Under the pieces are notes generated by a model, which saw only the letters and a list, made by a program, of their open reading frames with translations, searched no databases and was not told where the DNA came from. Positions 18,461 through 42,354 of a DNA stretch of 64,000 bases are shown here, piece after piece (position 1 is the first letter of the stretch; every line of letters starts with the position of its first letter). The translations under genes and the position numbers were made by a program. The stretch covers positions 80,286 to 144,285 of the forward strand of contig CAZBRS010000003.1 of the NCBI GenBank assembly GCA_964494475.1, given 5' to 3'. Origin of the DNA: an uncultured Myxococcales bacterium. Its GTDB lineage: Bacteria; Myxococcota_A; UBA9042; CAZBRS01.

Positions 18461-18582
18461 TGTAGAGACACCGCGACCGCGGTCAACCGCCGGACCGCTC
18501 CGTGACTTCGTTCCTGGGGTTCCCGCTGGCTTCAGAAATCGTCTGATCGTAACATACCGACCGTCGGGGAGGGGTGCGCGGT

Positions 18583-19698
18583 ATGACGCACGACGAGCAC
18601 AGGGAGAAGTCGGATCCGCAGGTGCGGTGCCTGGTCGTCGATGACGACGAGGACGATCGGTTCCACCTGATCCGCATGCTCCGCCAGGACGCCGAGGTCA
18701 CGTACCAGTTCAGCGAAGCCGCGACCGGCGAGCTCGGTCTGGCTGCCGCCGGGCGTGACGTCTTCGACCTCATCGTGCTCGACTACCGCCTGCCGGGAGA
18801 CGACGGCCTCTCGCTGCTGCCGCGCTTCCGTAAGGCCTGCCCCACCGCGGCGGTGGTGTTCGTGACCGGCGTGCAGGACATGGAGGTGGCCCGCTGCGCC
18901 CTGGCGGCCGGTGCCCACCACTTCCTGTTCAAGACCGAGCTCTCGACCACGGCGGTCAACCACGGCATGCGCGCGGCCCTCGGCCGGCGGCGCCTCGACG
19001 TCATGTCGGGCGAGTTGAACCGCATGGGCGACATGGCGCGCAACCTCTCGGCGTTCGTGCCGACCGACCTGGTCGACACGGTGATGCACTCCGCCGAGAG
19101 CGGCCACGAGACCGGAGCGCAGCGCCTGCCGGCCGGCATCCTGTTCGGTGACGTGGCCAACTTCTCGAGCATCGTCGAGGTCCTCGGGCCCGAGGGCACC
19201 ATCGAGATCCTGAACCGGTTGGTGGCGCGCTTCGAGTCCACGCTCCGCGAGCGACGCGGCATCCTCGACAAGATCATCGGCGACGGCGTGCTGGCCATCT
19301 TCCCGGGTCGGGCCGTGCCCGACGACGACCGTCGCACGCTCATGGAGAACATGATCCGGAGCGGCGCCGAGATGATCCGCGCGTTCGACGAGGAGTGGCG
19401 GCAGACGCCTTTCCACCAGGGCATCCCCAGCGGCTTCCGCGTAGGGTTGTCGTTCGGCGAGGTGATCCGCGGGCACGTGGGCTCCGAGCGCCGCCGCGAC
19501 TACACGGTGGTGGGCCGCACGGTCACGCTGGCCAAGCGCCTCGAGTCCCAGGCACCCTCCAACGCCATCCTGTTCGACGCGTCGGTCTACCAGCACGTGG
19601 CGCCCCTGCCGCGCGCGCTCGATTTGGGCGCCATGCGGCTGAAGGGCATCCCCGAGACGGTGCGCGTCTACCGGCTCGACGCCGACTGGGTGGGGTGA
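18583..19698 (+). CDS. Response-regulator receiver domain fused to a class III adenylate/guanylate cyclase
   Basis: The ribosome binding site GGGGAGGGG precedes the ATG at 18583. The receiver domain shows the acidic pocket VVDDDEDD. The cyclase domain contains ILFGDVANFSS and KIIGDGVLAIF. Confidence 0.8.
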   Translation: MTHDEHREKSDPQVRCLVVDDDEDDRFHLIRMLRQDAEVTYQFSEAATGELGLAAAGRDVFDLIVLDYRLPGDDGLSLLPRFRKACPTAAVVFVTGVQDMEVARCALAAGAHHFLFKTELSTTAVNHGMRAALGRRRLDVMSGELNRMGDMARNLSAFVPTDLVDTVMHSAESGHETGAQRLPAGILFGDVANFSSIVEVLGPEGTIEILNRLVARFESTLRERRGILDKIIGDGVLAIFPGRAVPDDDRRTLMENMIRSGAEMIRAFDEEWRQTPFHQGIPSGFRVGLSFGEVIRGHVGSERRRDYTVVGRTVTLAKRLESQAPSNAILFDASVYQHVAPLPRALDLGAMRLKGIPETVRVYRLDADWVG

Positions 19699-21927: not shown

Positions 21928-22075
21928 CGCACCCTCCCTTGTGGGGCCTCTCGTATAGCGCCCCGGAGGCCCGCGCGTCAAGCTCGTGGCGCGCGCCGGT
22001 CTCGGAGCGGCATCCGGGGCTTCGCGCGGACCCTGGCTCGGCGTATACTGGCAAGACAGAACCCGGGAGGAGCCC

Positions 22076-22945
22076 ATGCACCTCGACTCGTCGCTCGTCG
22101 GTCTCTCGCTGCGACCCATCGAGGCCCACGTCACGTGGCGCCAGACCACGAACTTCGCGGCCGCCGTCGGCGATCTCAACCCGCTCTACCTCGACGACAC
22201 GCTCGACGACGGTCTGGTGGCGCCACCCACGTTCCCCGTGGCGCTCAGTTGGCCGCTGCTGGCCGCCTTGCCGGACCACGCCGACCTGCCGTTCGGGTCC
22301 GAGATCCTGTTGTCGCTCGTGCACTACAGCGAAGCCCTGGTGCTGCACCGCCTGGTGCGCCCCGAGGACCACCTCCGCATCGGCGGCGAGATCGCGGCGC
22401 TCCTCCCGCACCGCGCCGGCTCGCACCTGGTCCTGAAGCTGGTGGCCAGCGACGAGCGCAACCGCGTGGTCTTCACCGAGTACGTGGGCGCGCTGCTCAT
22501 GGGCATCCCCTGCTCCGACGGCGGCGCGGGGGCCGAGGATCTGCCCCACGTCCCGCCGCCCCCCGGCGGCGAGCCCCTCTGGGAGGTGAACCTGCCCATC
22601 GCGACCGAGGCCCCCTGGGTCTACGACGGCTGCACGGGCATCGAGAATCCCCTCCACACGTCCGTCGCCTTCGCACGCCAGGCCGGGCTCCCGGGCCCCG
22701 TCCTGCAGGGCACGGCCACCCTCGCCAAGGCCGTCGCCGAGATCGTGAACCGCGAACTGAATGGCGACCCCAGCCGCGTCGAGTTCGTCTCGGCGCGCTT
22801 CACCGATCTGGTCGTTCCGGGCACCGAGGTGCGCGTGCAGTTGCTCGGCAGCGACGACCTCGAACGGGGGCGCGGCCTGCACTTCCGCGTGCTCGGCCCG
22901 AGCGGTCGACCGGCCGTCAACCGGGGGTTCTTGCGCGTGAAGTAG
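22076..22945 (+). CDS. MaoC-like double hot-dog dehydratase family protein
   Basis: The ribosome binding site GGGAGGAG precedes the ATG at 22076. There is two-domain hot-dog-like conservation. Confidence 0.6.
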   Translation: MHLDSSLVGLSLRPIEAHVTWRQTTNFAAAVGDLNPLYLDDTLDDGLVAPPTFPVALSWPLLAALPDHADLPFGSEILLSLVHYSEALVLHRLVRPEDHLRIGGEIAALLPHRAGSHLVLKLVASDERNRVVFTEYVGALLMGIPCSDGGAGAEDLPHVPPPPGGEPLWEVNLPIATEAPWVYDGCTGIENPLHTSVAFARQAGLPGPVLQGTATLAKAVAEIVNRELNGDPSRVEFVSARFTDLVVPGTEVRVQLLGSDDLERGRGLHFRVLGPSGRPAVNRGFLRVK

Positions 22946-22986: not shown

Positions 22987-24207
22987 ATGCGCTGGATCTT
23001 CAGGCTGCTCCTCCTGTTGCCCCTGGTGGCCCTCGGCCTGTTGGCGCTGGCCTGGGCGCTGTTGGTCCACACCGACGCCCCCGCGCACGTCGTGACCACC
23101 GGATTCAACGACGAGAACACCCGGCTGTGGCTCGAGGCCCGAACGGCTCGCCTGCACGGCGACCTGATGGGCCTGCGGATCGAGGACCTCTCGCTGGCCG
23201 AGCGCACGCGCACGCAGCCCATGGTGCGCGTCGAACGCTTCGATGCGAGCTTGAGCGCGCTGCCCACCGATGACCTCGTCGACATCGATCGCGTCGAGGT
23301 GAGCGGACTCGACATCGATCTCGACGTGGCCTGCCTGCCCGCCCTGCAGGAGTTCGCGATCCGCAAGGCCGAGCCCCCGAAGCCCGGCGGGCCGGCGCCG
23401 TCGGTCCGCTTCGGGAGGCTCGTGCTCACCGACGCGTCCTTCGCGTGGCGGGGCGCCGCGTCGTCCGTCGAGATCCCCGACCTCGACCTCGAGCTCTCGG
23501 GCGTCACGGGACCGGCCACCGACGTGACGCTCGCCGCGAGCCTGGCGGGCGCCACCATCGGCGCCGCGTCCACGGCGGTCAAGCTGGGCAAGCTGAAGCT
23601 CGACGGCTCGTTGAAGGGCAGCACGGAGGGCTCGGGAGAGTTGAAGCTCGACGCCGTCGCGCTCGAGAGCGTCGAGGCCGGCGCCTGGCGGATCGGGGGG
23701 CTGGCGCTCGGGGAAACGACGCTGACCTTGCAGGGACTCGGTGGGCGGCTGGTCCTCGGCGCGCTCGGGCTCCGCAGCCTCACCGGCCCCGACTTCGATC
23801 TGGCCGACGCCACCCTCTCGCTCGACGCCACGGGAGGGCTGGCCGGCGTCGAGCTCACGCGGGCCGCGCTCTCCTCGCCGCGCCTCTCGATCACGCTCGA
23901 CGGCACCGCGAAGCCCACCCTCGGCCTCACGGGCAGCGGCCTCGAGGTCAAGCTGCAGGGCTCGTTCCAGGTCGAGCCCGCGGCGCTGCTGCCGAAGGCC
24001 TGCGCCGGCGTCACCCGCGCGAGCGGGCGCTTCCTCGTCACGGGCGGATCGAAGGGCGGCCTGAAGCTCGACTCGCTCACGCTCACGATGACCGGCGCCG
24101 ACGGCGACCACGAGTTCACGCGCTCGGGCGTGGCGCTGACCGAAGGTGCGGTCGTACGAGCCCTCTTCAGTGAACTGTGCTCCACGGTGGGCACCGGAGC
24201 GCCGTGA
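22987..24207 (+). CDS. AsmA-like membrane-anchored protein, first gene of the TamB/Omp85 operon
   Basis: The ribosome binding site GGAG precedes the ATG at 22987. There is an N-terminal TM anchor, followed by beta-rich repeats rich in Gly and Leu. Confidence 0.55.
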   Translation: MRWIFRLLLLLPLVALGLLALAWALLVHTDAPAHVVTTGFNDENTRLWLEARTARLHGDLMGLRIEDLSLAERTRTQPMVRVERFDASLSALPTDDLVDIDRVEVSGLDIDLDVACLPALQEFAIRKAEPPKPGGPAPSVRFGRLVLTDASFAWRGAASSVEIPDLDLELSGVTGPATDVTLAASLAGATIGAASTAVKLGKLKLDGSLKGSTEGSGELKLDAVALESVEAGAWRIGGLALGETTLTLQGLGGRLVLGALGLRSLTGPDFDLADATLSLDATGGLAGVELTRAALSSPRLSITLDGTAKPTLGLTGSGLEVKLQGSFQVEPAALLPKACAGVTRASGRFLVTGGSKGGLKLDSLTLTMTGADGDHEFTRSGVALTEGAVVRALFSELCSTVGTGAP

Positions 24208-27200
24208 CCACGCCGTCGGCCAGGGAGACCCCCCCGCGCACGCGCCCACCCCGCAGGGGAGGCTTGCGGCGCCTCGGCCGCTGGGCCGTGCGCCTGCTGG
24301 CGACCCCCTTCCTGCTGCTCGCCCTCTCCTACCCGGTGGCCTGGTTCGCGCTCAATTCACCCGAATTCCTGACCCGCGCGCTCACGACCGTCAACGAGGC
24401 CATCCCTGGCACCATCCGGGTACGCGAGCTGGAGTGGGGGCCCCTGCCCTGGAGGCTCCACCTCACGGGCGTTCGCATCCTGGCGCCCGGCGACCCCGAG
24501 CCCGTGATCGCGGTGAACGACCTGGTGGTCGACCTCGCGCTGACCGACGCGCTGCGGAGCGCCCTCGCCACGCTCCTGCGGGGCGAGGGCTTCTTCCTGC
24601 CCGTCGACTCCGTGACGATGCGGGGCTACTCGTGCACGCTCACCTTCGACGACGACTTCGACCTGCGCCTGAAGCACGCGTTCGTGACCCCGACCCCCGC
24701 TGCCGAGGAGCCCCCGGACCCCGAGGACACGGACGACGACGCCAGGGGCTTCTCGATGGACGTTCGACGGGTGGTGGGACGCGGAGGCCGCTTCCGCATC
24801 GACTACCCGGCGTGGGGAGCGTCGACCGACGGCATCGACCTGTACGCGGTGTTCCGCCTCGAGAGCGACGGGACCCCCTTCGTGCTGGCGTCGACCGTCA
24901 CGAGCCGACGGGGTGAACTGCGGGTGGGCGACGGCGGACAGCCGGTGGTCTTCCCCTTCGAGGACCTCGAGGTCCACGGCTACATGCTCGATCACCTCTT
25001 CGAGCGCTTCGGGAGCGTCCGCTTCTCCAGCGAGGGCCTCCGGGTGCTGGCCACCGGACACCTGGCCACCGACGATCCCGCGCGCTGGTCCGAGCTCATC
25101 GCCAAGATCGAGGTGCCCGTCGACGCCCCGGGTCTGCTGCGATGGACGGGCGACCACGTGAGCCTGGCCGCGCCGGCCTCGTTCGAGGGACGCCTCGAGG
25201 GCCCCCTGGCGAGCCCGTCCCTGACCTTGGCGGCGGGGCCCCTGGCGATCACCAGCCCCTGGGTCCCGGGCCGGGTCTCGGTCGAACCGTTCCAGGCCAC
25301 CCTCGCCTTCCGGCCCATCGACGACGAGCTCAGCATCTCGCGCCTGGCCTTCGCGGGCGACTGCCTGCCGGCCGTCGAGGCCCGTGGGCTGCGGTTGGGC
25401 CTGGGCTCGCTGAACATCGAGGGCGAACTGCACGCCGGCGAGCTCTCGCGCGCGTTGTGGCCGCTCGACTGGCCCGTGGTGCTCGAGGCCGTGAAGAAGG
25501 CGGGGGGCTCTCTGCGCGTGGCGGGTCAGTTGCCCCTCGGCGAGGTCTGCGGACGACGGCTGGAGCTCGACGCCGACCTCGATCTCGGTGGGCACAGGGG
25601 ATTGACGGGCCGGCTCACGTGGGACCCCACGCGCCTCGAGTTGACCGATCTGCGCCTGGCGATGGACGTGGGCGAGGCCTCGGCCACCGGCTGGATCGAG
25701 CCCGGATCGGGCCGGCTCGACCTGCGCACCGAGGGCAAGGTGCGCGACCTCGCGACGTTCGTCGAGCGCCTGCACCTGCCTCCACGGGTGGCCGGCTCGG
25801 CGGTGTGGTCGGCCGAGGCCCGCGGCGCGTGGCCCGACCTCGACGGGAGGGGTTCGCTCGACGCCACGGCGCTGCACGTGGCCGGCCTCGACCTGGGCGC
25901 CGTTCGAGCGCGGGCCACGTTCGAGGAGCGGGTGCTCCGAGCCACGCGCTTCGAGATGACGGGGCCCCTCGGCGCCTATGCCGGGCGCGGCCTCGTCGAG
26001 CTCGACGAGGCCTGGCGGCCGACGCACGTTCGGCTCGACGAGGTGCGGGCCGCGCTCGACGCGCCCTCCATCCTCCTGCCCGATCTTCCCCTCGGCGCGC
26101 GGCTCGAGGTCAGCGCGACCGACCTCGAGCTCGAGGTCTCGGCGCCGCTGGCCTCGCTTCGGGGGAACGCGACGGTGCGGGCGGCCGGCGTGTCGTGGCT
26201 GGGCGAACCCATCGGCGACGTACAGGCCGACGTGCACGCGCCCGCTGGCGGCGATCTGCGGCTCGATCGCGTCGAGGTCCGCCGAGGGGGCAAGCGCCTG
26301 CTGGCCGCGGGGCTGACCGTCGATCGCGGCCTCGAGCGCGTGGCGGGCTCGGCGTCCGTCTCGGCGACCGTGGCGGAGCTCCCGTTCCTCCAAGGCCTGC
26401 CGTTCCCGCTGTCCGCCGAGGTCGCGCTCTCGCTCAGCGTCGAGGGTGCGCTCCTCGACCCCCTGGTGAGCGGCGTGCTTCGGCTCGACGACTGGGAGGT
26501 GCGCCCGCGTCCGGGCCTGCGGGTCCGGGGCAACGAGGCCACCGTGCGCCTGTGGGGTCGGCCCTCGACCGGCCTGCACCTGGCCTCGGACGACCTCTAC
26601 CCCGGCGTGCGGCTCAGCGAGCAGTCCACGCTGCGGCCCCTCGACGTCGACCTCTTCCTCGAGGTCGAGGGCCTGCAGCCCCTCGAGTTCTTCGAGGCGG
26701 CGGCCGACCTGCCCCTCTCCATCACGCTCGGCGGCACCTACCGCGTGAGCGCCCGCTTCGGCGGGCCCGCCTCGGTCACGGTGCTCGGCCGCATCCCGCG
26801 CCGGTCGCTCGGGGTGTCGCTGCAGGACGAAGAGGTGACCCTCTGGAACGAGGAGGAGACCGTCTTCGGCGTGTCGCCCCTGGGGCTCTTCGTGAACCGC
26901 CTCCACCTGACCGGCCAGAGCCTCGAGGCCGCCCTGTGCGGCGAGATCGGCCCCGACGGGGCGCTCGACGTGTCGGCCTCGCTGCAGGCCCGCGTCGCCA
27001 ACCTGCCGGGCCTGAAGGAGTTCCTCATCGAGCGGGGCGGCGAGCTCCGGACCGAGGGGCGGGGCGACGCGGCCTCGTGCCTGCCCGACGCTGGCGGCAT
27101 CCACGTGGGGGGCACGTTGGACCGACCTCGCTTCTCGGGGGCCGTGGTGCTGCAGGACCTGGCGCTGCGCCCGCGCGGCTTCGCGAGCACGATCCAGGTG

Positions 27201-28415
27201 CCCGGCCGGGCGCGCCTGCTCGTGAGCCAGGAGGACGACGAGACCTGGGTGCGCGTCGACCCTGAGGCGCCGCTGAAGGGCGTGCTCGACGAGGGCGCCT
27301 TCGAGGTGTCCGGCTCGGCCCGCTTCCGGCGCTTCCGGTTCGAGGAGGGCTCCGTCACCGTGACCGGCGCCAACGTGGCCTATGCGCTCCCCGGCGTGAC
27401 CGAGTTCACGGCCAACCCGAAGCTCACCCTCACCGCGCGCCCCGGCACCGACGACCCCTACGTGCTCTCGGGCGACGTGCGGTTCGTGAGCGGCCTGTTC
27501 TACAAGGACTTCGACCAACTGCGGCAGATGCTGACGGGAGTGCTCGGCGACCGTCACGCCGCCGCCTACTCGCGCCCCATCGACGAGCTCCTGCCCTTCG
27601 TCAAGGACCTGCGCTTCGACGTGCGCCTGCGGGGCCAGAACTACGACGTGCGCTGCCGCCTGCCGTTCGGCGAGACGGATCTGGCGTTGAACCTCGACCT
27701 CCGCCTGGCCGGTACGTACAGCCAGCCCGAGCTCTACGATCGCGTCGAGATCGTGCCCGGCTCCATGGTCACGTACCAGCTCGTGAAGCGCGACTTCGAG
27801 GTGACCCACGGCACCCTCGACTTCACGGGCGAGCCGGCGCGCCCCGAAGTCGAGATCCGCGCCAAGACCGACATCGACGTGCTGGTGCGCGCGGGGTCCA
27901 CGGGAGGCGCGACCACGGCCTGGATCGACACCGATCGCGAGGAGACGGTCACGCTCGTGCTGGCCCTCTCGGGGCGCCCCCCCGATCTGCGCTTCGACCT
28001 GTCGTCGAACCGCACCGACTTCGACCAGGAGGATCTGCAGTACCTGCTGGTGACGGGCCAGCCCAAGCAGGCGGGCAGCTCGGGCCTCGTGAGCGGCGTC
28101 AGCCTGAACCTGCTGACCCAGGATCTCGTGAAGTCGCTCTCGAGCTTCTTCCTGGCTCCCTTCCTCGACCGGGTCAGCCTGGGCTTCACGGCCGAGGGGG
28201 GCGTGAACGCCGACCTCATGACCCGGCTGGGTCGCCGCGTACAGCTTCGCACTCGCATCCTGCAGGAGGGCACCGACGTACGCTACTCGGCCGGCTTCAC
28301 GTTGAAGCTGAGCGATCGCCTGAGCCTCGACGGCCGCATGAAGGCCATCGAGACCGAGGGCTTCCAGAGCCGCACCTACGAGGCCAAGCTGCGCTACCGC
28401 ATCGAGGTCGACTGA
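24204..28415 (+). CDS. TamB-like translocation and assembly module protein (AsmA family, DUF490-type C-terminus)
   Basis: The GTG start overlaps the upstream stop as GTGA. There is an N-terminal TM anchor. The protein is about 1400 aa of beta-rich sequence. The C-terminal region (LDLRLAGTYSQPELYDRVEIVPGS...) resembles TamB DUF490. Confidence 0.7.
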   Translation: MTTPSARETPPRTRPPRRGGLRRLGRWAVRLLATPFLLLALSYPVAWFALNSPEFLTRALTTVNEAIPGTIRVRELEWGPLPWRLHLTGVRILAPGDPEPVIAVNDLVVDLALTDALRSALATLLRGEGFFLPVDSVTMRGYSCTLTFDDDFDLRLKHAFVTPTPAAEEPPDPEDTDDDARGFSMDVRRVVGRGGRFRIDYPAWGASTDGIDLYAVFRLESDGTPFVLASTVTSRRGELRVGDGGQPVVFPFEDLEVHGYMLDHLFERFGSVRFSSEGLRVLATGHLATDDPARWSELIAKIEVPVDAPGLLRWTGDHVSLAAPASFEGRLEGPLASPSLTLAAGPLAITSPWVPGRVSVEPFQATLAFRPIDDELSISRLAFAGDCLPAVEARGLRLGLGSLNIEGELHAGELSRALWPLDWPVVLEAVKKAGGSLRVAGQLPLGEVCGRRLELDADLDLGGHRGLTGRLTWDPTRLELTDLRLAMDVGEASATGWIEPGSGRLDLRTEGKVRDLATFVERLHLPPRVAGSAVWSAEARGAWPDLDGRGSLDATALHVAGLDLGAVRARATFEERVLRATRFEMTGPLGAYAGRGLVELDEAWRPTHVRLDEVRAALDAPSILLPDLPLGARLEVSATDLELEVSAPLASLRGNATVRAAGVSWLGEPIGDVQADVHAPAGGDLRLDRVEVRRGGKRLLAAGLTVDRGLERVAGSASVSATVAELPFLQGLPFPLSAEVALSLSVEGALLDPLVSGVLRLDDWEVRPRPGLRVRGNEATVRLWGRPSTGLHLASDDLYPGVRLSEQSTLRPLDVDLFLEVEGLQPLEFFEAAADLPLSITLGGTYRVSARFGGPASVTVLGRIPRRSLGVSLQDEEVTLWNEEETVFGVSPLGLFVNRLHLTGQSLEAALCGEIGPDGALDVSASLQARVANLPGLKEFLIERGGELRTEGRGDAASCLPDAGGIHVGGTLDRPRFSGAVVLQDLALRPRGFASTIQVPGRARLLVSQEDDETWVRVDPEAPLKGVLDEGAFEVSGSARFRRFRFEEGSVTVTGANVAYALPGVTEFTANPKLTLTARPGTDDPYVLSGDVRFVSGLFYKDFDQLRQMLTGVLGDRHAAAYSRPIDELLPFVKDLRFDVRLRGQNYDVRCRLPFGETDLALNLDLRLAGTYSQPELYDRVEIVPGSMVTYQLVKRDFEVTHGTLDFTGEPARPEVEIRAKTDIDVLVRAGSTGGATTAWIDTDREETVTLVLALSGRPPDLRFDLSSNRTDFDQEDLQYLLVTGQPKQAGSSGLVSGVSLNLLTQDLVKSLSSFFLAPFLDRVSLGFTAEGGVNADLMTRLGRRVQLRTRILQEGTDVRYSAGFTLKLSDRLSLDGRMKAIETEGFQSRTYEAKLRYRIEVD

Positions 28416-28416
28416 C

Positions 28417-31400
28417 GTGAACCGGCCCCGCACCAGGAGGCTCGCCCTGTTCTTGGGGCTCTTGCTGGCGGCAGCGCCCCGCCTCGCGGCGCAGGTCGTC
28501 TCGGTCGAGGGCGTGCCCGACGCCGGCCCCTGCCTCGGACACCCGCTGGCCGACGTGCGCGTGACCGCCTGCACCCTCGATCGCTGCGCCGACCCCGACT
28601 TCGTGGCGTCCCTGGTGGGCTCGCTCGGGCTGTTGCCGGGCCTGGTGCTGCAGGTCGACGACCTCGCGCGCGCCAGCGGAAGGCTCGCGGCGCTGCAGGT
28701 CTTTCGCGGGATCGAGCTCCGCTGCGTGGCCGCCTCGGGCGATCCGCCGTCACCCGCGGAGGGGCTCGTGGCTCCGGTCGTCCTCGAGCTCTCGCTCGAG
28801 GGACGGTACGTGGTCGACGACGTCACGATCAGCGGCCATCGCGACCTGTACAAGTCCGACATCCTGAAGCGCACCTACCTGCGCGCAGGCCAGTACCTGG
28901 AAGACGCGTCGCCCGACGCCGAGGCGTTCCGCAGCCAGGCCCGCGCCCTGGAGGCGCTGCACGAGCGCGAGGGCTTCGAGGGCGCGAAGGTCGAGGTCGT
29001 GCCCGTCCCGCTCCCGAACAACCGCGTCCGCGTCGAGATCCGAATCCAGCCGGGCCTCCGCCACGTGCTCGAGCGCATCGACGTGACGCTGGGCGAGCCC
29101 GACCCCTCGTCGGGATGCGCGGCGCTCGGAGAAAGCGAGGTGCGCTCGGCCTTCGGCCTGAAGGCCGGCGCGACGCTGACCCCCAAGGTGCTGAAGGACG
29201 CGCGCCGCGCGCTGCTCGCTCGACTCTGGGCGCACGGCGCGACCAATGCCCGGGTGACGACCGAGCTCGACGAGGAGGGGTCGATCGTCCGCCTCGCCGT
29301 GCACCACTCGCAGTGCTGGCGCGTGCAGTTCTGGACGTCGCGGGACGATCCGGCGCGGCCCTACGTGCCCGCCGACCCGTCGGACTGGCGCGACGTGCTC
29401 ACGTTCAAGGAGAGCGGGACCTTCGACTGGGAGGAGGCCGAGATCGGTCGCCTGGCCCTGATCGATCACCTGCGCGAGCGCGGCTACGTCGACGCCCGCG
29501 TGACGATGGAGGTGCGCACGCTCCCGACCGACGGCAGCCCCGCCGTGCTCGGCCAGGTCGACTACTTCCTCGACCTCGGGCGCCCACCGACCATCGACCG
29601 CATCACCTTCGTGGGCCGCGAGCACCTGGCCGAGTCCGACCTGCGCGAGCTGATGCAGACCGAGGAGTACAGCCTGTTCTCGCAGGGAGGCACGCTGCTG
29701 GTCGAGCAGCTCTTCTCGGACCTGGGCCGCATCGCCGAGCGTTACCGGGCCGAGGGCTTCCACGCCTTCGCGTTCGAGGGCGCCCGCGCCGACGACGACA
29801 CGCGCCAGCGCATCGAGCGCAACCCCGACCCTGCCGTCGGCGGCCCGGGCGACCAGGGGACCGAGCGCGAGGTGTGGCGCTGGTCCCGTGGCGAGTTGGC
29901 GTTCGATCTGGTGCGCCGGAAGGGCAAGGGCGGGGTCGAGGTCCAGATTCGGTTGCTCGAGGGACCCCGCAGCGTGCTCGAGGCCGTCGACGTGGCGGGG
30001 GCCTCGCGCCTCAGCGAGGAGCGGCTGCGCCGCGCGCTCGGCCTGACCGCCAACCTGCCCTGGAGCCTGCCGGTGCTGCAGCGCCTCGAGGGCGCGCTGC
30101 GCAACACGTACAGCGCGCGGGGCTTCTCGATGATGACCTTCGAGAGCCGCTGCGCCGCGCGCGAACCCGACGTGGAGTGGGGGCCCTGCGACGTCGACCG
30201 CCTGAAGAGCCGACGCGTCCTGCTGCGCTTCACCATCGACGAGGGCGAGAAGGCCGTCGTCCGGCACGTCTTCGTCTTCGGCAACCGCGTGACGCGCTCG
30301 TCGTTCGTGCTGGCCAGCCTGCCGAAGCCCGGAGAACCCTACGACATCGAGCGCGTGCGCGCCGGCATCACCGACCTGCGCAACACCGGCCTGTTCGCGT
30401 CGGTGCAGGCCAGCGCGCTCGGCCCCGACGAGCAGCCCCCGAGCCGCGACGTGACCCTGGTCGTGCACGTCGAAGAGCTCGACTACCAGACGTTCGACGT
30501 GGCCGCCGGCTTCGAGACCATCAACCGCCCCGGCGAGAGCGCGCCGGCCTTCGTCTCGACCCTCGTGCGCAACAGCGTGGCGGTCGCCGACGCCTCGCTC
30601 ACGGGCAACGAGGAGCCCTTCCTGACCGAACTGCCCGACCTGTTGATCACGGCCGAGGTGGCGTACACCAACATGAACTTCCTGGGCCGCGCCCGCCAGC
30701 TCTACGTGCCGCTCAAGTACGGCTTCTCGATGACGCATCCCCTCCGCTACGCCTCGTTCGCGCCCATGTACACCGACCCCTACTTCACGCGCCCGCGCCT
30801 CACGTTGCAGGTCTCGCCCTTCGTCACCTACGACCGCGCCACCGAGGCCATCGACAAGGCGCTGCTCGGGCTGACCACGGCGCTCTCGAAGTCGTTCCTG
30901 GGGCACTTCCACGTGTCGCTCGGCTACGAGATCTCCGAGATCACCTACCGCCTGCCCGGCGACCCCGTGCGCGGCGACTGGAGCCCCTGGGGCCTGCAGA
31001 ACAAGGTGAACCTGCGCGGCTCGATCACGTACCTCGACAACCCCATCCACCCCACGCGCGGCGTCTTCCTCGGCGCGAGCACCACCTACCTGAACGCGCT
31101 GCAGCAGGGCGACTTCCGCAACTTCGTGAAGTGGGATCTGCAGGTGAAGGGCTTCCTGCCCGTGCGCCGTTGGCTGGTCATCGGCTCGATGGCGCGCTAC
31201 GCCGACAGCCGCTCGTTCGAGGGCGCCGCCCTGCCCGACTACGAGCGCTACAAGCTGGGCGGCTCGAAGGGCCTGCGCGGCTTCGACGACGACGCCGTGA
31301 CCCAGTACTACGCCGACGGCTCCCTGCGCTACGCGCCCGTCGAGACCGTCGACGGCGAGACCCGCGCGGTGCAGGCGCTGCAACCCTTCGGTGGCGACGT

Positions 31401-31725
31401 GCTGATCCAGGGCTCCGAAGAGCTGCGCGTGCCCATCTGGCGCGCCATGGGGCTGTGGGCCGGGGGCTTCTTCGATTGGGGCGCCGTGGCCGAGCGCGCG
31501 GTCGAGCTGCACGCCAAAAGCTTCCGCACCTCCGCGGGCTTCGGTCTGCGCTGGCTGCTCGGCGGCCAGGTGCCCCTGCGCATCGACTACGGCTTCAAGC
31601 TCGAGCGGCGCTGCGAGAAGCTGGGCTACGCCGACCCCGCCAACGCCACGGCGGCCGACGAGCCGGTGTGCCTGGCGAAGGAGAACCTGGGCGCGCTGCA
31701 CTTCGGGTTCTTGTATACGTTCTGA
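28417..31725 (+). CDS. Omp85-family outer-membrane protein (BamA/TamA-like), unusually long at 1102 aa
   Basis: The GTG start lies 1 nt after the TamB-like stop. There is a signal peptide, a POTRA-like region and a C-terminal surface-antigen barrel (GGSKGLRGFDDD...LHFGFLYTF). Confidence 0.75.
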   Translation: MNRPRTRRLALFLGLLLAAAPRLAAQVVSVEGVPDAGPCLGHPLADVRVTACTLDRCADPDFVASLVGSLGLLPGLVLQVDDLARASGRLAALQVFRGIELRCVAASGDPPSPAEGLVAPVVLELSLEGRYVVDDVTISGHRDLYKSDILKRTYLRAGQYLEDASPDAEAFRSQARALEALHEREGFEGAKVEVVPVPLPNNRVRVEIRIQPGLRHVLERIDVTLGEPDPSSGCAALGESEVRSAFGLKAGATLTPKVLKDARRALLARLWAHGATNARVTTELDEEGSIVRLAVHHSQCWRVQFWTSRDDPARPYVPADPSDWRDVLTFKESGTFDWEEAEIGRLALIDHLRERGYVDARVTMEVRTLPTDGSPAVLGQVDYFLDLGRPPTIDRITFVGREHLAESDLRELMQTEEYSLFSQGGTLLVEQLFSDLGRIAERYRAEGFHAFAFEGARADDDTRQRIERNPDPAVGGPGDQGTEREVWRWSRGELAFDLVRRKGKGGVEVQIRLLEGPRSVLEAVDVAGASRLSEERLRRALGLTANLPWSLPVLQRLEGALRNTYSARGFSMMTFESRCAAREPDVEWGPCDVDRLKSRRVLLRFTIDEGEKAVVRHVFVFGNRVTRSSFVLASLPKPGEPYDIERVRAGITDLRNTGLFASVQASALGPDEQPPSRDVTLVVHVEELDYQTFDVAAGFETINRPGESAPAFVSTLVRNSVAVADASLTGNEEPFLTELPDLLITAEVAYTNMNFLGRARQLYVPLKYGFSMTHPLRYASFAPMYTDPYFTRPRLTLQVSPFVTYDRATEAIDKALLGLTTALSKSFLGHFHVSLGYEISEITYRLPGDPVRGDWSPWGLQNKVNLRGSITYLDNPIHPTRGVFLGASTTYLNALQQGDFRNFVKWDLQVKGFLPVRRWLVIGSMARYADSRSFEGAALPDYERYKLGGSKGLRGFDDDAVTQYYADGSLRYAPVETVDGETRAVQALQPFGGDVLIQGSEELRVPIWRAMGLWAGGFFDWGAVAERAVELHAKSFRTSAGFGLRWLLGGQVPLRIDYGFKLERRCEKLGYADPANATAADEPVCLAKENLGALHFGFLYTF

Positions 31726-31744: not shown

Positions 31745-34700
31745 TCAGCGGCTCGCGGTCCCTCGGAGCAGCGCGCTGGCCGGATACACCCCCGGGTGCC
31801 TCGCCACGAACCGCAGGAGCGGCTCCCGCGCCTTGGGATCTTCCTCCAGGGCCGCGTTCAGGCCCCACAACAGGTCGCGCAGGTCGGCCAGGGCCAGGGG
31901 CTGCTTCAGCCAGCCCGTGGGGTCGGGCACGGGCGCGGCGGGGAGCGGCGTGGGCCAGGCGGCCAGCACGTCGTGGCGGCCGGCGCGGGCCAGGGCCACG
32001 AAGACGTCGCGCAGGAACGTGGGGTCGGCGCTCGCGGCGCCGGGCGTGCCCAGCCAGGCGCCGAGGGCCTCGACGAAAGGCACGGCGTTCGGCTCGTAGA
32101 ACATGGAGGTGGCGTGGGCCAGCAGCCAGGCCTGGGCCTCGAGCCAGGCGCGCTCGGGCCTGGGAGCCGCCGCCACCAGGGCCTCGACGTTCGGCTCGCC
32201 GTGCCGCGCGAAGAGCTGTTGCCCGAAGGCGTCGCCCGGGAAGAGCAGGCGCCAGGCCCAGGCGAGCGAGCGCAGCAGCGCGCGGTCGGTGGTGCCCTGG
32301 CGCGCCTCGAGGTAGGCCACCAGGGCCTCGATGGTCTTCGACGACAGGCGGTGCGCGCGGATCACGTCGGCCAGGTGCGTGCGGTTGCGGTCGAGCGGCG
32401 CCAGGCGCTCGTCGACGCGCCACAGCAGGTTCGAACGGGCGCCCGCGAAGAAGGCCTTCGGGGCGGCGTACTCGAGCACGGGCCGGGTGTCGGAGTTGAA
32501 GGGCGGCTCGCCGGGGAAGAGCTTGCGGAAGCGCCCGGCCGAGAGGATCTGGTTCGCGAGCAGCACCTCGGCGTCGTGCAGGGGCTGGCCCACCACCTCG
32601 CGGTTCAGGTCGTCGTGCACCGCAGGCAGCGCCAGGCGGGAGCGCACGTGCGCCAGGTCGAGCTTCAGGGGCTCGGCCGAGGCCACCACCAGGATGTCGC
32701 GCGTGTTGCACTGCCACAGCTCGACGTTCGGGAACACGGCGGCGAGCGTGTTGAGGATGACGCGCAGGAGGGCGTCGTTCAGCTCGTACAGGTGCACCCA
32801 CTGCACGAGCACGCCGCCCGGCGCGAGGTGCGCGCGGATCTCGGTGAAGTACTCGAGGCTGAACAGGTTGCCGATGCCGGCGATCCACGGGTTCGAGGGC
32901 TCGCTGACGATGACGTCCCAGCGATCGTCGGGCTTCAGCTTGAAGAACTCCTTGGCGTCGCCCACGTGCAGGCGAAAGCGCGGGTCCTCGAGCAGGTTGC
33001 CGTTGTAGGGCGCGAAGTAGCGGGCGCCCTCGACCACCGTGTCGGCGATCTCGACCAGGTCGACGTCGGCGCCCGGGTGGGTGAGCACGGCCGAGGCCGT
33101 GATGCCGCTTCCGAGCCCGATGATCATGGCGTGCTTCGCGGCGGGGTTCAGGAACATGCCGAGGTGCCCCAGCCACAGCTGGGTGGTCATGTCGTGGCCC
33201 GTGCCCGCGTCGGTCTTGCCGTTGACCTTCAGGTACAGGTGGTCGGTGCGCGTGTCGCGGATGACCGCCACCGACGTGTCGGCGCCGTCGCGGGCGTACT
33301 CGACCCGGAAGGGCTTCAGCTCGCCCAGCATGGCCTCGAACGACTCGGCGGCGAACTGCTTGTGCCGGAAGAGGCCGAAGTGCAACGCCAGCGGGCTCCA
33401 GGCGGGCAGCACCGCCAGCGCGAGCGCGAGGGCGGCCAGCACGCCGGCCGACGTACCCACGCGACGCGCGCGCGGCAGGTCGGAGGCCCAGAACAACAAG
33501 ACCCCGAGCAGCGCCGACAGCACGAGGCCGAGCTCGAGCGCGTGCCGGAGCCCCAGCGCCGGCAAGAGCACGAGGCCCGTGAGGACCGAGCCCACCACGG
33601 TGCCGAGGGTGTTGATCGAGAAGACCGAGCCCACGCGGCGGGCGACGCGGCCGACATCGTCGACGCGCACGCGGCTGGCCAGCGGCAGCGTCATGCCGAT
33701 GAAGAAGGTGGGCAGGAACATGAGCGCCACCGACACGGCCACCTGGATGGCCAGATAACCCCAGAAGGCCTCGGGCGAACGGGGCAGCAGGGACGCAATG
33801 GCCGCGAAGGTGTAGGGCAGCCGATCGTAGAGCGGGATGAGGGGCAGGATGGAGGCGAACACACCGACCTCGGCCCAGGCGAGCCAGCGCACGGGATCGT
33901 GCCGCTCGCCGAAGGTGCGGCCCACGGCCCAGGCACCCGCCGTGATGCCCGCGATGAAGGTCAGGAGCATGATCGAGAACGAGTACGCCGACGAGCCGAG
34001 CACGAGCGACAGGAGGCGCACCCACACGAGCTCGTAGAGCATGGACGCGCCACCCGAGACACCGATGGCGACGAAGACGGCGCGCTGCTGCCGACGGGTG
34101 AACGTGCGCGCCTCGGACTCCGGGGCGAGCACGCCCTCCGGGGCCGAGACGACGGCAGGCGTGGGGCAGGGAGCGATCGGCGCGGCCGCGCGAAGGCGCC
34201 GCGAGGCCACCAGGAAGGCCGCGGCCAGCCCGATGTTGAGGAGCGCGCTCAGGCGGATGGTCCAGGCGAAGCCGAGGGCCGGCACCAGCACGAAGCCACC
34301 GAGCACCACGCCGAGCACGGCGCCCAGGCTGTTGACCGTGTACAGGTGGGCCACCGACACCGTCACGTCGGACAGGCTGCGCACGATGGCGCGCGTGAGC
34401 ACCGGCAGCGTGCCCCCCATGAGGAAGGTGGGGACCAGCACCACCGACGCCGACAGCGCCACCTTCAGGGGCAGCGTGAGCGGGTCGCCGAAGCCCAGAG
34501 GGCCGGCCAGGCGCACGTACAGGTCGCCCAGCACGGCGAAGAGCTCGGGGAAGAAGAAGCACGCGAGCCCCACGCCGAGCTCGAGGCGCGCGTAGAGGCC
34601 GAGCGGGTCGGGGCTGCGATCGGCGCGCGGCGCGAGCAACCAGTTGCCGAGGGCCAGCCCCCCCATGAAGGTGGCGAGCACGACCGTCTGCGCCAAGGTG

Positions 34701-34828
34701 GTGCCGCCGATGAGCAGCGTGAGCGCCTTGGACCAGACGATCTCGTCGACCAGCCCGGCCAGGCCCGACACCAGGAAGCCGGCGGTGATGAGCCGGCGCA
34801 GTCCGACGGAGGGGACCGACGCGCTCAT
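31745..34828 (-). CDS. Fused MFS/spermidine-synthase family protein
   Basis: There are two 6-TM halves. A spermidine-synthase-like domain follows (DVDLVEIADTVVEGARYF...VIVSEPSNPWIAG). The C-terminus is TPR-like. Confidence 0.7.
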   Translation of the reverse strand: MSASVPSVGLRRLITAGFLVSGLAGLVDEIVWSKALTLLIGGTTLAQTVVLATFMGGLALGNWLLAPRADRSPDPLGLYARLELGVGLACFFFPELFAVLGDLYVRLAGPLGFGDPLTLPLKVALSASVVLVPTFLMGGTLPVLTRAIVRSLSDVTVSVAHLYTVNSLGAVLGVVLGGFVLVPALGFAWTIRLSALLNIGLAAAFLVASRRLRAAAPIAPCPTPAVVSAPEGVLAPESEARTFTRRQQRAVFVAIGVSGGASMLYELVWVRLLSLVLGSSAYSFSIMLLTFIAGITAGAWAVGRTFGERHDPVRWLAWAEVGVFASILPLIPLYDRLPYTFAAIASLLPRSPEAFWGYLAIQVAVSVALMFLPTFFIGMTLPLASRVRVDDVGRVARRVGSVFSINTLGTVVGSVLTGLVLLPALGLRHALELGLVLSALLGVLLFWASDLPRARRVGTSAGVLAALALALAVLPAWSPLALHFGLFRHKQFAAESFEAMLGELKPFRVEYARDGADTSVAVIRDTRTDHLYLKVNGKTDAGTGHDMTTQLWLGHLGMFLNPAAKHAMIIGLGSGITASAVLTHPGADVDLVEIADTVVEGARYFAPYNGNLLEDPRFRLHVGDAKEFFKLKPDDRWDVIVSEPSNPWIAGIGNLFSLEYFTEIRAHLAPGGVLVQWVHLYELNDALLRVILNTLAAVFPNVELWQCNTRDILVVASAEPLKLDLAHVRSRLALPAVHDDLNREVVGQPLHDAEVLLANQILSAGRFRKLFPGEPPFNSDTRPVLEYAAPKAFFAGARSNLLWRVDERLAPLDRNRTHLADVIRAHRLSSKTIEALVAYLEARQGTTDRALLRSLAWAWRLLFPGDAFGQQLFARHGEPNVEALVAAAPRPERAWLEAQAWLLAHATSMFYEPNAVPFVEALGAWLGTPGAASADPTFLRDVFVALARAGRHDVLAAWPTPLPAAPVPDPTGWLKQPLALADLRDLLWGLNAALEEDPKAREPLLRFVARHPGVYPASALLRGTASR

Positions 34829-34835
34829 GGAGGGG

Positions 34836-35702
34836 TCAGCCCCGCTTTTTTCGACGCGCGGGGACGGGCACGGGCGTCGGCGTGTCGCAGGCGGGCACCT
34901 TGAGCCGCCCGAACGTGCCTCGGAGAGCCAGGGCCAACCAGATGTACCCGACCACCGCGAAGGGGATGCTGAGATACTGGCCCTCGGTCAGCCACGACTG
35001 ATCCGGGCTCAAGGCCTGGTATTCCTTGAAGAACTCGACCACGAAGCGCCCCGTGAAGTAGAGCGACATGAACAGCCCGAAGAGGATGCCGCGCTTGCGG
35101 CCGTTATCGGGCAGCAGCCGGTCGACCAGCAGGACGACGCCGAAGATCGCGAAGCCGAGGCCGGCCTCGTACAGTTGGCTGGGATGGCGCGCGTGGGCGC
35201 CATGGTCGTCGTAGCGCGGGAAGCACACGGCCCAGGGCGCGTCGGACACGCGGCCCACGATCTCGCTGTTCATGAAGTTGCCGAGCCGCACGAACGTGGC
35301 CCCCATGGTGGTGGGGATGGCCATGCGGTCGAGGACCTCGATGTAGGGGATGCGGTACTTGCGACTGTACAGCCACAACGTGAAGATGATGCCGAGCGTG
35401 GCGCCGTGGCTGGCCAGCCCGCCCTTCCAGACGAACAGGATCTCGAGGGGGTGCTTGAGGTAGTACAGGGGCTCGTAGAACAGGCAGTGCCCCAGGCGCG
35501 AGCCGGCCACCACGGCCACGACGCCCCACACCAGCCACTTGTCGGCCACGACCAGGTCGTACCCCAGCCGCTTGCTCTGGCTCATCCAGAACCTGAAGCC
35601 GAGCAGCAGCCCCGCCACGAAGAGCAGGCTGTAGTAACGAATGGCCAGCGGTCCGATGCGGAAGATCTCGGGATCGGGGTTCCAGACGAAGCAGTCGGGC
35701 AT
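34836..35702 (-). CDS. lgt: Prolipoprotein diacylglyceryl transferase
   Basis: The Lgt signature region is present, including GLASHGATLG. The ATG lies at 35702. Confidence 0.8.
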   Translation of the reverse strand: MPDCFVWNPDPEIFRIGPLAIRYYSLLFVAGLLLGFRFWMSQSKRLGYDLVVADKWLVWGVVAVVAGSRLGHCLFYEPLYYLKHPLEILFVWKGGLASHGATLGIIFTLWLYSRKYRIPYIEVLDRMAIPTTMGATFVRLGNFMNSEIVGRVSDAPWAVCFPRYDDHGAHARHPSQLYEAGLGFAIFGVVLLVDRLLPDNGRKRGILFGLFMSLYFTGRFVVEFFKEYQALSPDQSWLTEGQYLSIPFAVVGYIWLALALRGTFGRLKVPACDTPTPVPVPARRKKRG

Positions 35703-38960: not shown

Positions 38961-40154
38961 TTACTTGGGCACCGGCACGGGCGCGGGGTCGCCGAGCAGC
39001 GGCGCGAGCACGGCGTCCCACTTCTCGGCCGACAGGTAGCCGGGCATGACCTTGCCGTTCACCACGAAGGTGGGCGTGCCCTGAATCTTGTACTGGCGGG
39101 CCCGCTCGATGTCGGCGGCCACCGAACGCTTGAGGCTGCCCTCGGGATCGGACAGGCAGGCCTTGAACGCCGGAAGGTCGAGCCCGGCCTTCCCGGCCAG
39201 GTCGAGGACGACCCGATCGTCGAGCTCTTTCTGGTGGTCGAAGAGCAGGTGGTGATAGTGCCAGTACTTGCCCTGCCGGGCGGCGCACCGGCTGGCGTAG
39301 GCGGCGTAGCAGGCCAGGCGGTGGAAGGGCTTGGGGATGTACGGGTTGCAGGCCTGGTCGAGGGGGTAGTCGATGTGCTCGAAGCGGATGCGATCGCCGT
39401 ACTTCTCGAGCACGTGTTCGACGGCCTGGGCCGCACGCCCGCAGTAGGGGCACTGGAAGTCGGTGATGCCGAGGACGGTCACGGGCGCGCCGAGGGGGCC
39501 GCGCACGGGCTCGGTGCCAGGCTGCGAGGGGCGATCGGTCGTCGAGGGGCTGAGCTGGAGCCCGCCCATGGGGTGCGCCCAGAACCAGCCCACGGCGACC
39601 AGGCCGGCCACGACCGCGCCGGCGCTCACGTAAGCCCGCACCCCGGAGAAGAGCCAGACCAGGTCGGCCCGGGCCTCGCGCGCCAGGCCGACCAGCCCGA
39701 AGCGCCGCTCGAGCAGGAGGGCGAGCACCAGCAGCAGATTCAGCCCGTACGTGACGACGCAGACGATGCACACCGAGCCGATGCAGGTGAACTGCAGGTA
39801 GACCAGGTAGACGTCGTCGAGCAGCACCACGAAGGGCAGCCAGAAGAAGACGGCGTCCCAGCGGAAGGCCCCCTCGTCGCGCCGGATCAACCGGACGACG
39901 GCACCCAACAGCAAGAGGCCGTAGAGCCCGATGCCCCACAGCGCGTACGGAACGCCGAGGAAGACCGAGTACTCGCTGGCGGCCACCTTCTCGCAGTCGA
40001 GCGCGTCGGAGAGGGTGCAGAAGCTGTCGCCGGTGGCCTCGCCCTGCCGGACCTCGAAGAACACGTCGAGCAGGTAGACGCTGGCGACCAGCCCCGCCAG
40101 GGAGATGAGCGCCACGACGATCGGAGTGACGATGCCTCGCCGGTTTGCCTGCAC
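38961..40154 (-). CDS. Vitamin K epoxide reductase (VKOR) domain fused to a DsbA-like thioredoxin domain
   Basis: The N-terminal 4-5 TM helices carry a CIVC (CxxC) motif. The C-terminal thioredoxin fold carries CPYC. Confidence 0.75.
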   Translation of the reverse strand: MQANRRGIVTPIVVALISLAGLVASVYLLDVFFEVRQGEATGDSFCTLSDALDCEKVAASEYSVFLGVPYALWGIGLYGLLLLGAVVRLIRRDEGAFRWDAVFFWLPFVVLLDDVYLVYLQFTCIGSVCIVCVVTYGLNLLLVLALLLERRFGLVGLAREARADLVWLFSGVRAYVSAGAVVAGLVAVGWFWAHPMGGLQLSPSTTDRPSQPGTEPVRGPLGAPVTVLGITDFQCPYCGRAAQAVEHVLEKYGDRIRFEHIDYPLDQACNPYIPKPFHRLACYAAYASRCAARQGKYWHYHHLLFDHQKELDDRVVLDLAGKAGLDLPAFKACLSDPEGSLKRSVAADIERARQYKIQGTPTFVVNGKVMPGYLSAEKWDAVLAPLLGDPAPVPVPK

Positions 40155-40295
40155 GGTGACTCCTGGCGTGCGCCGCGGCCAAGCGGGCTCAAAGCGGGCT
40201 CATTCTAGGCTGGGCCCCCGGCAAATCAACTGGAAAGCCCGGTTGCCTTTCGTATACTGAGGGCATCGATCGGCACGAAGGGCGCGGCCATCTCC

Positions 40296-40970
40296 ATGGA
40301 CGCCATCGAGAAAGACAAGCTGCTCCAGCGACTGACGAAGCGCACGGGCGAAGGCACCGGCGGCGAACGCTTCGTGTCGGGGCTGCTCAAGAAGTACCGT
40401 GCCGGACAGGGCGCCGACGGACGCGAGGCCGGCCAGGTGAAGCACGCCGCCCGCGCCATCGGCGACGACGCCCCGAAGCGCCTCGACGTGCCGACGCAGG
40501 CCCGCATGGAGGCCATGCTGGGCGTCGATCTCTCCGACGTGCGCATCCACACGGGCGAGGCCGCGCAGCAGGTCGCCGAAGGCGCCGGAGCCCGCGCGTT
40601 CACGCTGAACGATCGCGACATCTACTTCGCCCGCGAAGAGTTCGTGCCCACCAGCACCGAGGGCCGCGCCCTGCTGGCCCACGAGCTCACGCACGTGGCC
40701 GAGCGCCGCGAGGGCGCCTTCCCGTCGCTGCGGGCACCCTCAGCACGCCACGACAGCGAGCGCAGCGCCGAGCACACCGAGGCCCTCACGCTGGCGCTCG
40801 AGGAGTCCTCGGCCGAGGTGGTCGAGCGGGTGCTGCGCACCGAGCGCATCGAAGAGGTCATCGACGAGAGCATGTCGCTCGACGAAAAGAAGCGCTGGCT
40901 GGTCGAGCAGGCCTGGCGGCGCTTCATCGAAGCCGAGCGGCGTCAGGTCGACCGGCTGGGGTCGTTCTAA
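40296..40970 (+). CDS. DUF4157-domain protein, putative HExxH zinc metallopeptidase-like
   Basis: The DUF4157 signature is LGVDLSDVRIHTGEAA...AFT...IYF...LLAHELTHV. Confidence 0.65.
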   Translation: MDAIEKDKLLQRLTKRTGEGTGGERFVSGLLKKYRAGQGADGREAGQVKHAARAIGDDAPKRLDVPTQARMEAMLGVDLSDVRIHTGEAAQQVAEGAGARAFTLNDRDIYFAREEFVPTSTEGRALLAHELTHVAERREGAFPSLRAPSARHDSERSAEHTEALTLALEESSAEVVERVLRTERIEEVIDESMSLDEKKRWLVEQAWRRFIEAERRQVDRLGSF

Positions 40971-42173: not shown

Positions 42174-42354
42174 CGGGCGCAGTTCACGCGCCGATCCTCA
42201 TGGTACCTGGTTCGAGCCAAGTGGCAATCCGGGCGCACCGCAGCGCGCCGCGAACGACCCGGCCCTCCGTGGCCTGCAGTCCGCGAAGGCGGACTTGATA
42301 GCCTGAGCCGCGACTTCAGTCGACGGCTTGCTCGGCCCGCGCTACCATCACCCC

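Follow-up and report, generated by a model that had tools for sequence, protein, structure and literature searches.

Omp85 proteins with seven POTRA domains were reported, with Mxan5763 as the query, from Myxococcales and Acidobacteria, where they occur besides the regular BamA (Arnold et al., 2010; PMC2878562). In Bdellovibrio the genes Bd2492-Bd2494-Bd2495 are co-transcribed; Bd2494 encodes a DUF490 protein and Bd2495 a seven-POTRA Omp85 that could not be deleted (Milner et al., 2014; PMC3983030). The Myxococcus xanthus genes MXAN_5766-5763 are syntenic with this operon, the DUF490 gene MXAN_5764 being followed by the seven-POTRA gene MXAN_5763 (Milner et al., 2014; PMC3983030). TamB-BamA operons have been found in Spirochaetes, a duplicated seven-POTRA BamA is linked to TamB in Acidobacteria, and extra POTRAs are frequent in TamB-linked Omp85s (Heinz et al., 2015; PMC4494059). 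Here we describe a locus of three genes (g1, g2, and g3) in a 64,000-nt stretch of DNA (the window) from an uncultured Myxococcales bacterium (contig CAZBRS010000003.1). The locus is probably a trans-envelope module resembling the TAM (translocation and assembly module), of a type reported before from Myxococcus (MXAN_5765-5763) and Bdellovibrio (Bd2494-Bd2495): g2 encodes a TamB-like protein, g3 a giant Omp85, and g1 a short, truncated paralogue of the TamB N-terminus. TamB/AsmA-like bridges are the leading candidates for phospholipid transport to the bacterial outer membrane, and TamB-Omp85 partnering outside Proteobacteria has been little studied; the locus adds a divergent example from an uncultured lineage.

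The window is chromosomal DNA with 71% GC. All three genes lie on the + strand and encode products of 406, 1403, and 1102 aa. Their features are as follows.
22987..24207, + strand: g1, short TamB-N/AsmA-like paralogue with membrane anchor (profile comparison, gene calls)
22993..23067, + strand: g1 N-terminal hydrophobic helix, about aa 3-27 (Kyte-Doolittle, AlphaFold2 [AF2])
24204..24207, no strand: GTGA overlap of g1 stop and g2 start (sequence; conserved in L005)
24204..28415, + strand: g2, TamB-like, 1403 aa (Pfam TamB/DUF490)
27288..28346, + strand: g2 C-terminal DUF490/TamB domain, aa 1029-1381 (Pfam)
28413..28419, no strand: g2 stop TGA, 1-nt spacer, g3 start GTG (sequence; spacer also in L005)
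28417..31725, + strand: g3, Omp85, 1102 aa (Pfam POTRA and Omp85)
28534..30480, + strand: predicted g3 POTRA arm, aa 40-688 (AF2 secondary structure, Pfam POTRA on segments)
30496..31722, + strand: g3 Omp85 beta-barrel, aa 694-1102 (Pfam Omp85 and sequence)

The open reading frames (ORFs) extend over 22960/22987-24207 (g1), 24177/24204-28415 (g2), and 28417-31725 (g3), and all three show a strong coding signal, with a GC content of 0.93-0.95 at third (GC3) and about 0.5 at second codon positions (GC2). The ATG start of g1 at 22987 has a GGAG 8 nt upstream. At the g1/g2 junction, which reads ...GGAGCGCC-GTGA-CC, the GTG start of g2 overlaps the TGA stop of g1 at 24204-24207, and at the g2/g3 junction (28413-28419, ...GACTGAcGTG) the spacer is 1 nt. 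All three products (406, 1403, and 1102 aa) occur in exactly this form, starts included, in public gene calls (NCBI, Logan), which together with the junction sequence bear out the coupling of the genes, through the GTGA overlap and the 1-nt spacer, that a sequence-only reading of this DNA had noted. We assigned the start of g2 from the sequence and the gene calls; the GTG is the probable start. A JGI call on an identical contig (L013) uses instead a TTG at 24264, 60 nt downstream, which would give a 56-nt g1-g2 spacer. The GGAG...GTGA junction is base-for-base the same in L005, a relative at 80% identity, which supports the GTG start against the TTG. The genes are tightly linked in distant homologous loci as well: L005 also has the 1-nt g2/g3 spacer, and in L007 each of the two junctions is a 4-nt overlap. 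A scan for promoters and terminators was uninformative at 71% GC.

The g2 product matches Pfam TamB/DUF490 (PF04357) at aa 1029-1381 with an E-value of 1.6e-17 (64 bits, cut-off 22.4) and shows a weak DUF748 match at aa 26-122. Its only hydrophobic segment is N-terminal, at about aa 28-50. Thus, it carries both the C-terminal DUF490 and the single N-terminal signal-anchor helix by which the TamB family was defined (Heinz et al., 2015). The third feature of that family is an aromatic (F/Y) last residue, and here g2 departs from it with an end in ...YRIEVD; the C-terminus reads ...YEAKLRYRIEVD (window ~28380-28412). Among loci with an Omp85 of at least 1065 aa, which we call the giant-Omp85 clade, the TamB C-terminal motif is TYEA(K/R)x(K/R)YRIP(L/V)(D/E). 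Across the whole clade the last TamB residue is D/E/N/R, while it is F in the more distant L018 and L020 TamBs. Against the proteobacterial TamB equivalog NF047952, g2 scored 13.4 bits (cut-off 825).

The g3 product begins with a Sec-type signal peptide, followed by POTRA repeats (Pfam E-value 1.1e-35) and an Omp85 barrel (2.3e-30, aa 754-1064). Its best curated match is the BamA equivalog TIGR03303, at 191 bits and so below the cut-off of 297; the clade members P0006 and P0007 scored 212 and 180 bits against the same model. All the best PDB matches of g3 are BamA. The score against the TamA equivalog NF047950 is 19.7 bits (cut-off 625). The AF2 model shows seven successive beta-alpha-alpha-beta-beta units within aa 40-688 and then the barrel, which is modelled with low confidence. 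The predicted POTRA-like units lie at about the following residues.
Unit 1: aa 40-130
Unit 2: aa 131-212
Unit 3: aa 218-297
Unit 4: aa 299-387
Unit 5: aa 393-503
Unit 6: aa 520-610
Unit 7: aa 612-688
When the segments were scanned singly against Pfam POTRA, six of the seven matched, four above the 21.3-bit cut-off and two at 20.4-20.7 bits; the first unit gave no Pfam POTRA match on its own, and its assignment as a candidate POTRA comes from the predicted structure. This first unit is the least BamA-like in g3, while in Heinz et al. (2015; PMC4494059) the third POTRA is the most divergent. The barrel contains an L6-type GLRGF motif and ends in ...GFLYTF. With seven units, g3 differs from canonical BamA (five POTRA domains) and, at 1102 aa, also from TamA (three POTRA, about 577 aa). 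It agrees with the Mxan5763/Bd2495 type in having seven POTRA units before an Omp85 barrel and in lying directly downstream of a DUF490/TamB gene. The length and the three domain calls given in the sequence-only reading (g1 AsmA-like, g2 TamB-like, g3 Omp85) were correct, and the count of POTRA domains that it had recommended as a check gave more than the five of BamA, in a protein below the BamA equivalog cut-off. As a separate observation on g3, nine cysteines (39, 52, 57, 103, 234, 300, 579, 591, and 1066) are invariant in homologues down to about 32% identity, a pattern that points to several disulfides within the periplasmic POTRA arm.

The g1 product has one N-terminal hydrophobic segment (Kyte-Doolittle maximum 2.67 over 19 residues), presumed to be an inner-membrane signal anchor, and is beta-rich and rich in Gly, Leu, and Ala past the anchor. 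In BLASTP, g1 matched g2 and the small protein of L007 only marginally, so that profile-profile comparison was needed. In hhalign the g1 family matched the TamB N-termini with 91.5% probability (E 9e-7, residues 2-169) and a sister group of more distant small proteins with 89% probability; of the two groups, that of g1 has diverged more. The sister group in turn matched the TamB N-terminal profile with 99.7% probability (E 7e-26, 283 columns), and its members have in common with TamB the N-terminal pattern TM helix-YF..NS-LPG..V..VQWGPxP. Pfam AsmA gave 15.8 bits with g1, below the gathering score of 29.8, and DUF748 gave 14.7-46.9 bits with the positional homologues of g1, all under the cut-off of 50. 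In terms of the AsmA-like clan, g1 therefore has the anchor and the profile homology to the TamB/AsmA N-terminal region and lacks an AsmA or DUF748 match above the gathering score. No DUF490 domain was detected in g1 or in its positional homologues. These profile data identify g1 as a paralogue of the TamB N-terminus, truncated and with a membrane anchor. A description of the upstream gene as such a TamB-N/AsmA-like paralogue was not found in the literature, and this is a modest new point. A PDB sequence search with g1 gave nothing meaningful, and a HMMER scan of 1.84 billion representatives yielded 7 real g1 homologues only, which indicates that g1 evolves fast. The AF2 model of g1, built from a 3-sequence alignment, has a mean pLDDT of 37.6 and can be interpreted only for the transmembrane helix (residues 2-27, pLDDT >70) and the beta-rich content; the remainder is unreliable.

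Next, we compared the locus with its relatives. The closest genome relatives found are metagenome-assembled genomes (MAGs) of Myxococcota or "Deltaproteobacteria" with an Omp85 identity of 28-32%. Word-indexed protein searches returned 9, 3, and 17 matches and did not reach the named Myxococcus/Bdellovibrio proteins. Every retrieved Omp85 relative with upstream sequence directly follows a tamB-like gene, in many cases overlapping it by 1 or 4 nt, and one of these tamB-linked Omp85s (P0013) passes the BamA cut-off at 367 bits. The tamB-then-Omp85 order is therefore common and not unusually inverted. With the published seven-POTRA Omp85s and tamB-Omp85 operons, both the giant Omp85 and the gene order were already known. 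The proposal in the sequence-only reading that the arrangement is unusual, perhaps a distinct new module, is therefore not supported (PMC2878562, PMC3983030, PMC4494059), while its suggestion of an outer-membrane biogenesis or lipid-transport module is still the best reading. A small anchored gene lies directly upstream of tamB in L005, L004, L001, L007, L009, L011, L028, and L031, and it precedes tamB in 9 of the 10 distinct loci of the giant-Omp85 clade; its product is 367-623 aa long across loci. In the clade member L033 the small gene is missing, with an acyl-CoA dehydrogenase gene upstream of tamB in its place, and the more distant tamB-Omp85 operons (Omp85 of 910-1037 aa) do not have it either. 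The order of the three genes persists to an Omp85 identity of about 30%, while the flanking genes vary. The truncated TamB-N paralogue is thus a near-constant, translationally linked third gene in this clade. An ENA metagenome protein of 1971 aa (P0020) was also retrieved, with DUF748, TamB/DUF490, POTRA, and Omp85 in one predicted protein; it may be a natural fusion of TamB and Omp85 or may result from read-through at an overlapping tamB/Omp85 junction.

These comparisons establish the structure of the genes, their domains, their homology and conserved synteny, and that g1 is a paralogue, and they make the locus an ordinary member of an already described, poorly studied module. Its function is likely lipid transfer and/or outer-membrane protein (OMP) assembly. 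For the mechanism we infer physical contacts, substrate, and the role of g1 wholly by analogy with TamAB and Borrelia TamB-BamA. The g2 protein would be held in the inner membrane by its one N-terminal helix and would extend a long beta-rich groove across the periplasm, and its C-terminal DUF490 may dock on the POTRA arm of g3, a putative dedicated outer-membrane BamA paralogue with seven POTRA units. Jointly, g2 and g3 would carry phospholipid to the outer membrane and/or assist in the insertion of particular OMPs. The g1 gene could have arisen by duplication of the N-terminal part of TamB, its product retaining the anchor and the beginning of the groove without the Omp85-docking domain, and would be co-expressed as an accessory subunit on the inner-membrane side. 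Genes of lipid metabolism recur upstream of tamB across unrelated loci. In the window a MaoC double-hotdog dehydratase gene lies at 21959-22945, and MaoC is also found in L005; elsewhere, just upstream of tamB, L018 and L020 have accC-BCCP and L033 has the acyl-CoA dehydrogenase gene. In L020 the BCCP gene extends 4 nt into the start of tamB. The coordinates recorded for these arrangements are as follows.
L018/L019: 3325-3849, 3880-8001
L020: 3387-3929, 3926-7915
L033: 1464-3257
These recurrent neighbours lend weak support to a lipid link. The known picture of outer-membrane biogenesis is unchanged by the locus. It does raise a question for Myxococcus and Bdellovibrio genetics, namely whether MXAN_5765 is a g1-type paralogue and whether such a protein binds TamB or the POTRA arm.

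Several observations weigh against the assignment to a TAM-like module or against parts of it. The likeness to MXAN_5763-5765 and Bd2494-95 is drawn from architecture, gene order, and phylum only. The TamB C-terminus ends in D/E and not in the aromatic residue typical of TamB. In the POTRA arm of g3, unit 1 has no Pfam support and two other units fall just under the cut-off, and the AF2 model of g3 is moderate, with a mean pLDDT of 58.5 (70-89 over aa 40-320, lower beyond). The AF2 model of g1, at 37.6, appears too poor to support a groove fold. Finally, g1 is 55% identical where the Omp85 is 80% identical, which with its 7 homologues is compatible with a weakly constrained accessory gene.

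Among described systems, the locus is closest to M. xanthus MXAN_5766(sgmX)-5765-5764-5763 and B. bacteriovorus Bd2492-Bd2494-Bd2495, from the same or a neighbouring phylum, in which a DUF490/TamB gene is likewise followed by a seven-POTRA Omp85; in M. xanthus, 5765 lies directly upstream of tamB, the position held here by g1. In contrast to those operons, no SgmX-like tetratricopeptide repeat (TPR) gene was found upstream in the window or in the MAG loci checked (L007, L009, and L001). The g3 protein has seven POTRA units, a BamA-like barrel, and linkage to tamB in common with the Mxan5763 class and the Acidobacteria duplicates, although the published order in Acidobacteria is BamA-TamB and here it is tamB-Omp85. 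The proteobacterial TAM also consists of an inner-membrane-anchored TamB with a C-terminal DUF490 in an operon with an Omp85, and its action is presumed to be the same. It differs in the opposite gene order, in lacking an extra short TamB-N paralogue, in an aromatic rather than acidic TamB C-terminus, and in a TamA partner with three POTRA and about 577 aa where g3 has seven and 1102 aa. In Borrelia, tamB is followed by a BamA-type Omp85 as in the window, and the Borrelia DUF490 was shown to bind the BamA POTRA domains (PMC5582053, PMC11361582); that partner is the sole canonical five-POTRA BamA, whereas g3 has seven POTRA and falls below the BamA cut-off. The g1 protein resembles E. coli AsmA, YicH, and YhjG in having an N-terminal anchor, then an N-terminal region of AsmA/TamB type, and no DUF490. 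Unlike these short AsmA-like proteins, it is still shorter (406 aa), scores below the Pfam AsmA/DUF748 cut-offs, and has its gene coupled to those of a full TamB and an Omp85. YdbH-YnbE provides a precedent for a multi-part bridge (PMC11126948).

Other explanations of the locus were considered. One possibility, which we put forward tentatively and regard as rather less probable than an ordinary TAM-like module, is a three-component machine in the giant-Omp85 clade of Myxococcota-like bacteria, distinct from the barrel assembly machinery (BAM) and the proteobacterial TAM, in which g1 and g2 would both serve one elongated seven-POTRA Omp85 and an acidic, clade-specific TamB C-terminus (YRIPLD) would replace the usual aromatic docking motif, which resembles a beta-signal. 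The g1 protein might then load lipid or another substrate at the inner membrane, or might meet the POTRA arm part-way across the periplasm.

It is unlikely that g3 is the sole essential BamA of the organism and the operon a tamB-bamA pair as in Borrelia or Deinococcus. The g3 protein was named BamA by JGI, its best NCBIfam and PDB matches are BamA, and P0013 shows that some tamB-linked Omp85s pass the BamA cut-off. Moreover, Bd2495 was not deletable in Bdellovibrio (PMC3983030), and no canonical bamA was found within the 64-kb window; the other Omp85 in the window, at 40974-42197 (- strand), is a 407-aa protein without a POTRA match (NF047779 Omp85_fam, 233 bits) and is no BamA candidate. On the other hand, g3 reached only 191 of the 297 bits of the BamA equivalog cut-off and has seven POTRA units, not five. 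The canonical bamA-skp(ompH)-lpxD-fabZ neighbourhood is absent around g3: among the ORFs of the window that were scanned, no skp, lpxD, or fabZ follows it. The seven-POTRA proteins of Myxococcales are additional to the regular Omp85 (PMC2878562), and in M. xanthus that regular Omp85, MXAN4728, adjoins OmpH (MXAN4727) (PMC3222651). Inactivation of mxan_5765 or mxan_5764 was tolerated and left S-motility unaffected (Mercier et al., 2020; PMC7668184), and transposon insertions in MXAN_5765-5761 were tolerated too (2026 bioRxiv preprint).

We also doubt, somewhat more strongly, that a partial tamB duplication left g1 as a decaying or functionally irrelevant remnant. Its very fast divergence, the very narrow detectable family, the variable length (367-623 aa), and its absence from L033 and the more distant tamB-Omp85 operons would fit such a remnant. 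Yet 9 of 10 distinct loci, whose Omp85s diverge to about 30% identity, keep an intact frame with the N-terminal anchor, the GC3 of 0.93 is like that of the neighbours, the junction with tamB stays tight or overlapping, and positions including Cys339 are conserved within the g1 subgroup. A two-partner-secretion (TpsB/FhaC-like) or other substrate-specific exporter role for g3 with no TamB-related function, to which weak sub-threshold ShlB-type POTRA_2 matches might point, is highly improbable, given that there is no adjacent TpsA-like cargo gene, that TpsB proteins have two POTRA and about 550 aa against the seven and 1102 aa of g3, that the barrel matches BamA-type models, and that the pairing with tamB is invariant.

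Some further genes of the window were recorded. Convergent to g3 lies an ORF at 31745-34987 (- strand; 1080 aa stop-to-stop) for a fused protein of the major facilitator superfamily (MFS) and spermidine-synthase-like type (NF037959 MFS_SpdSyn), followed by lgt; the MFS_SpdSyn-lgt pairing is also present in L005. At 38961-40199 (- strand), 7 kb downstream of g3, is a gene for a VKOR-DsbA fusion. The gene for an eCIS_core/DUF4157 protein at 40209-40970 (+ strand) adjoins the 407-aa Omp85 gene in divergent orientation. An 804-aa protein without a Pfam match, encoded at 53609-56023 (- strand), carries acidic double-disulfide repeats (NF033662). Upstream of the locus, at 18553-19698 (+ strand), a response-regulator receiver is fused to an adenylate/guanylate cyclase domain, and this gene is found upstream of the locus in L005 too.

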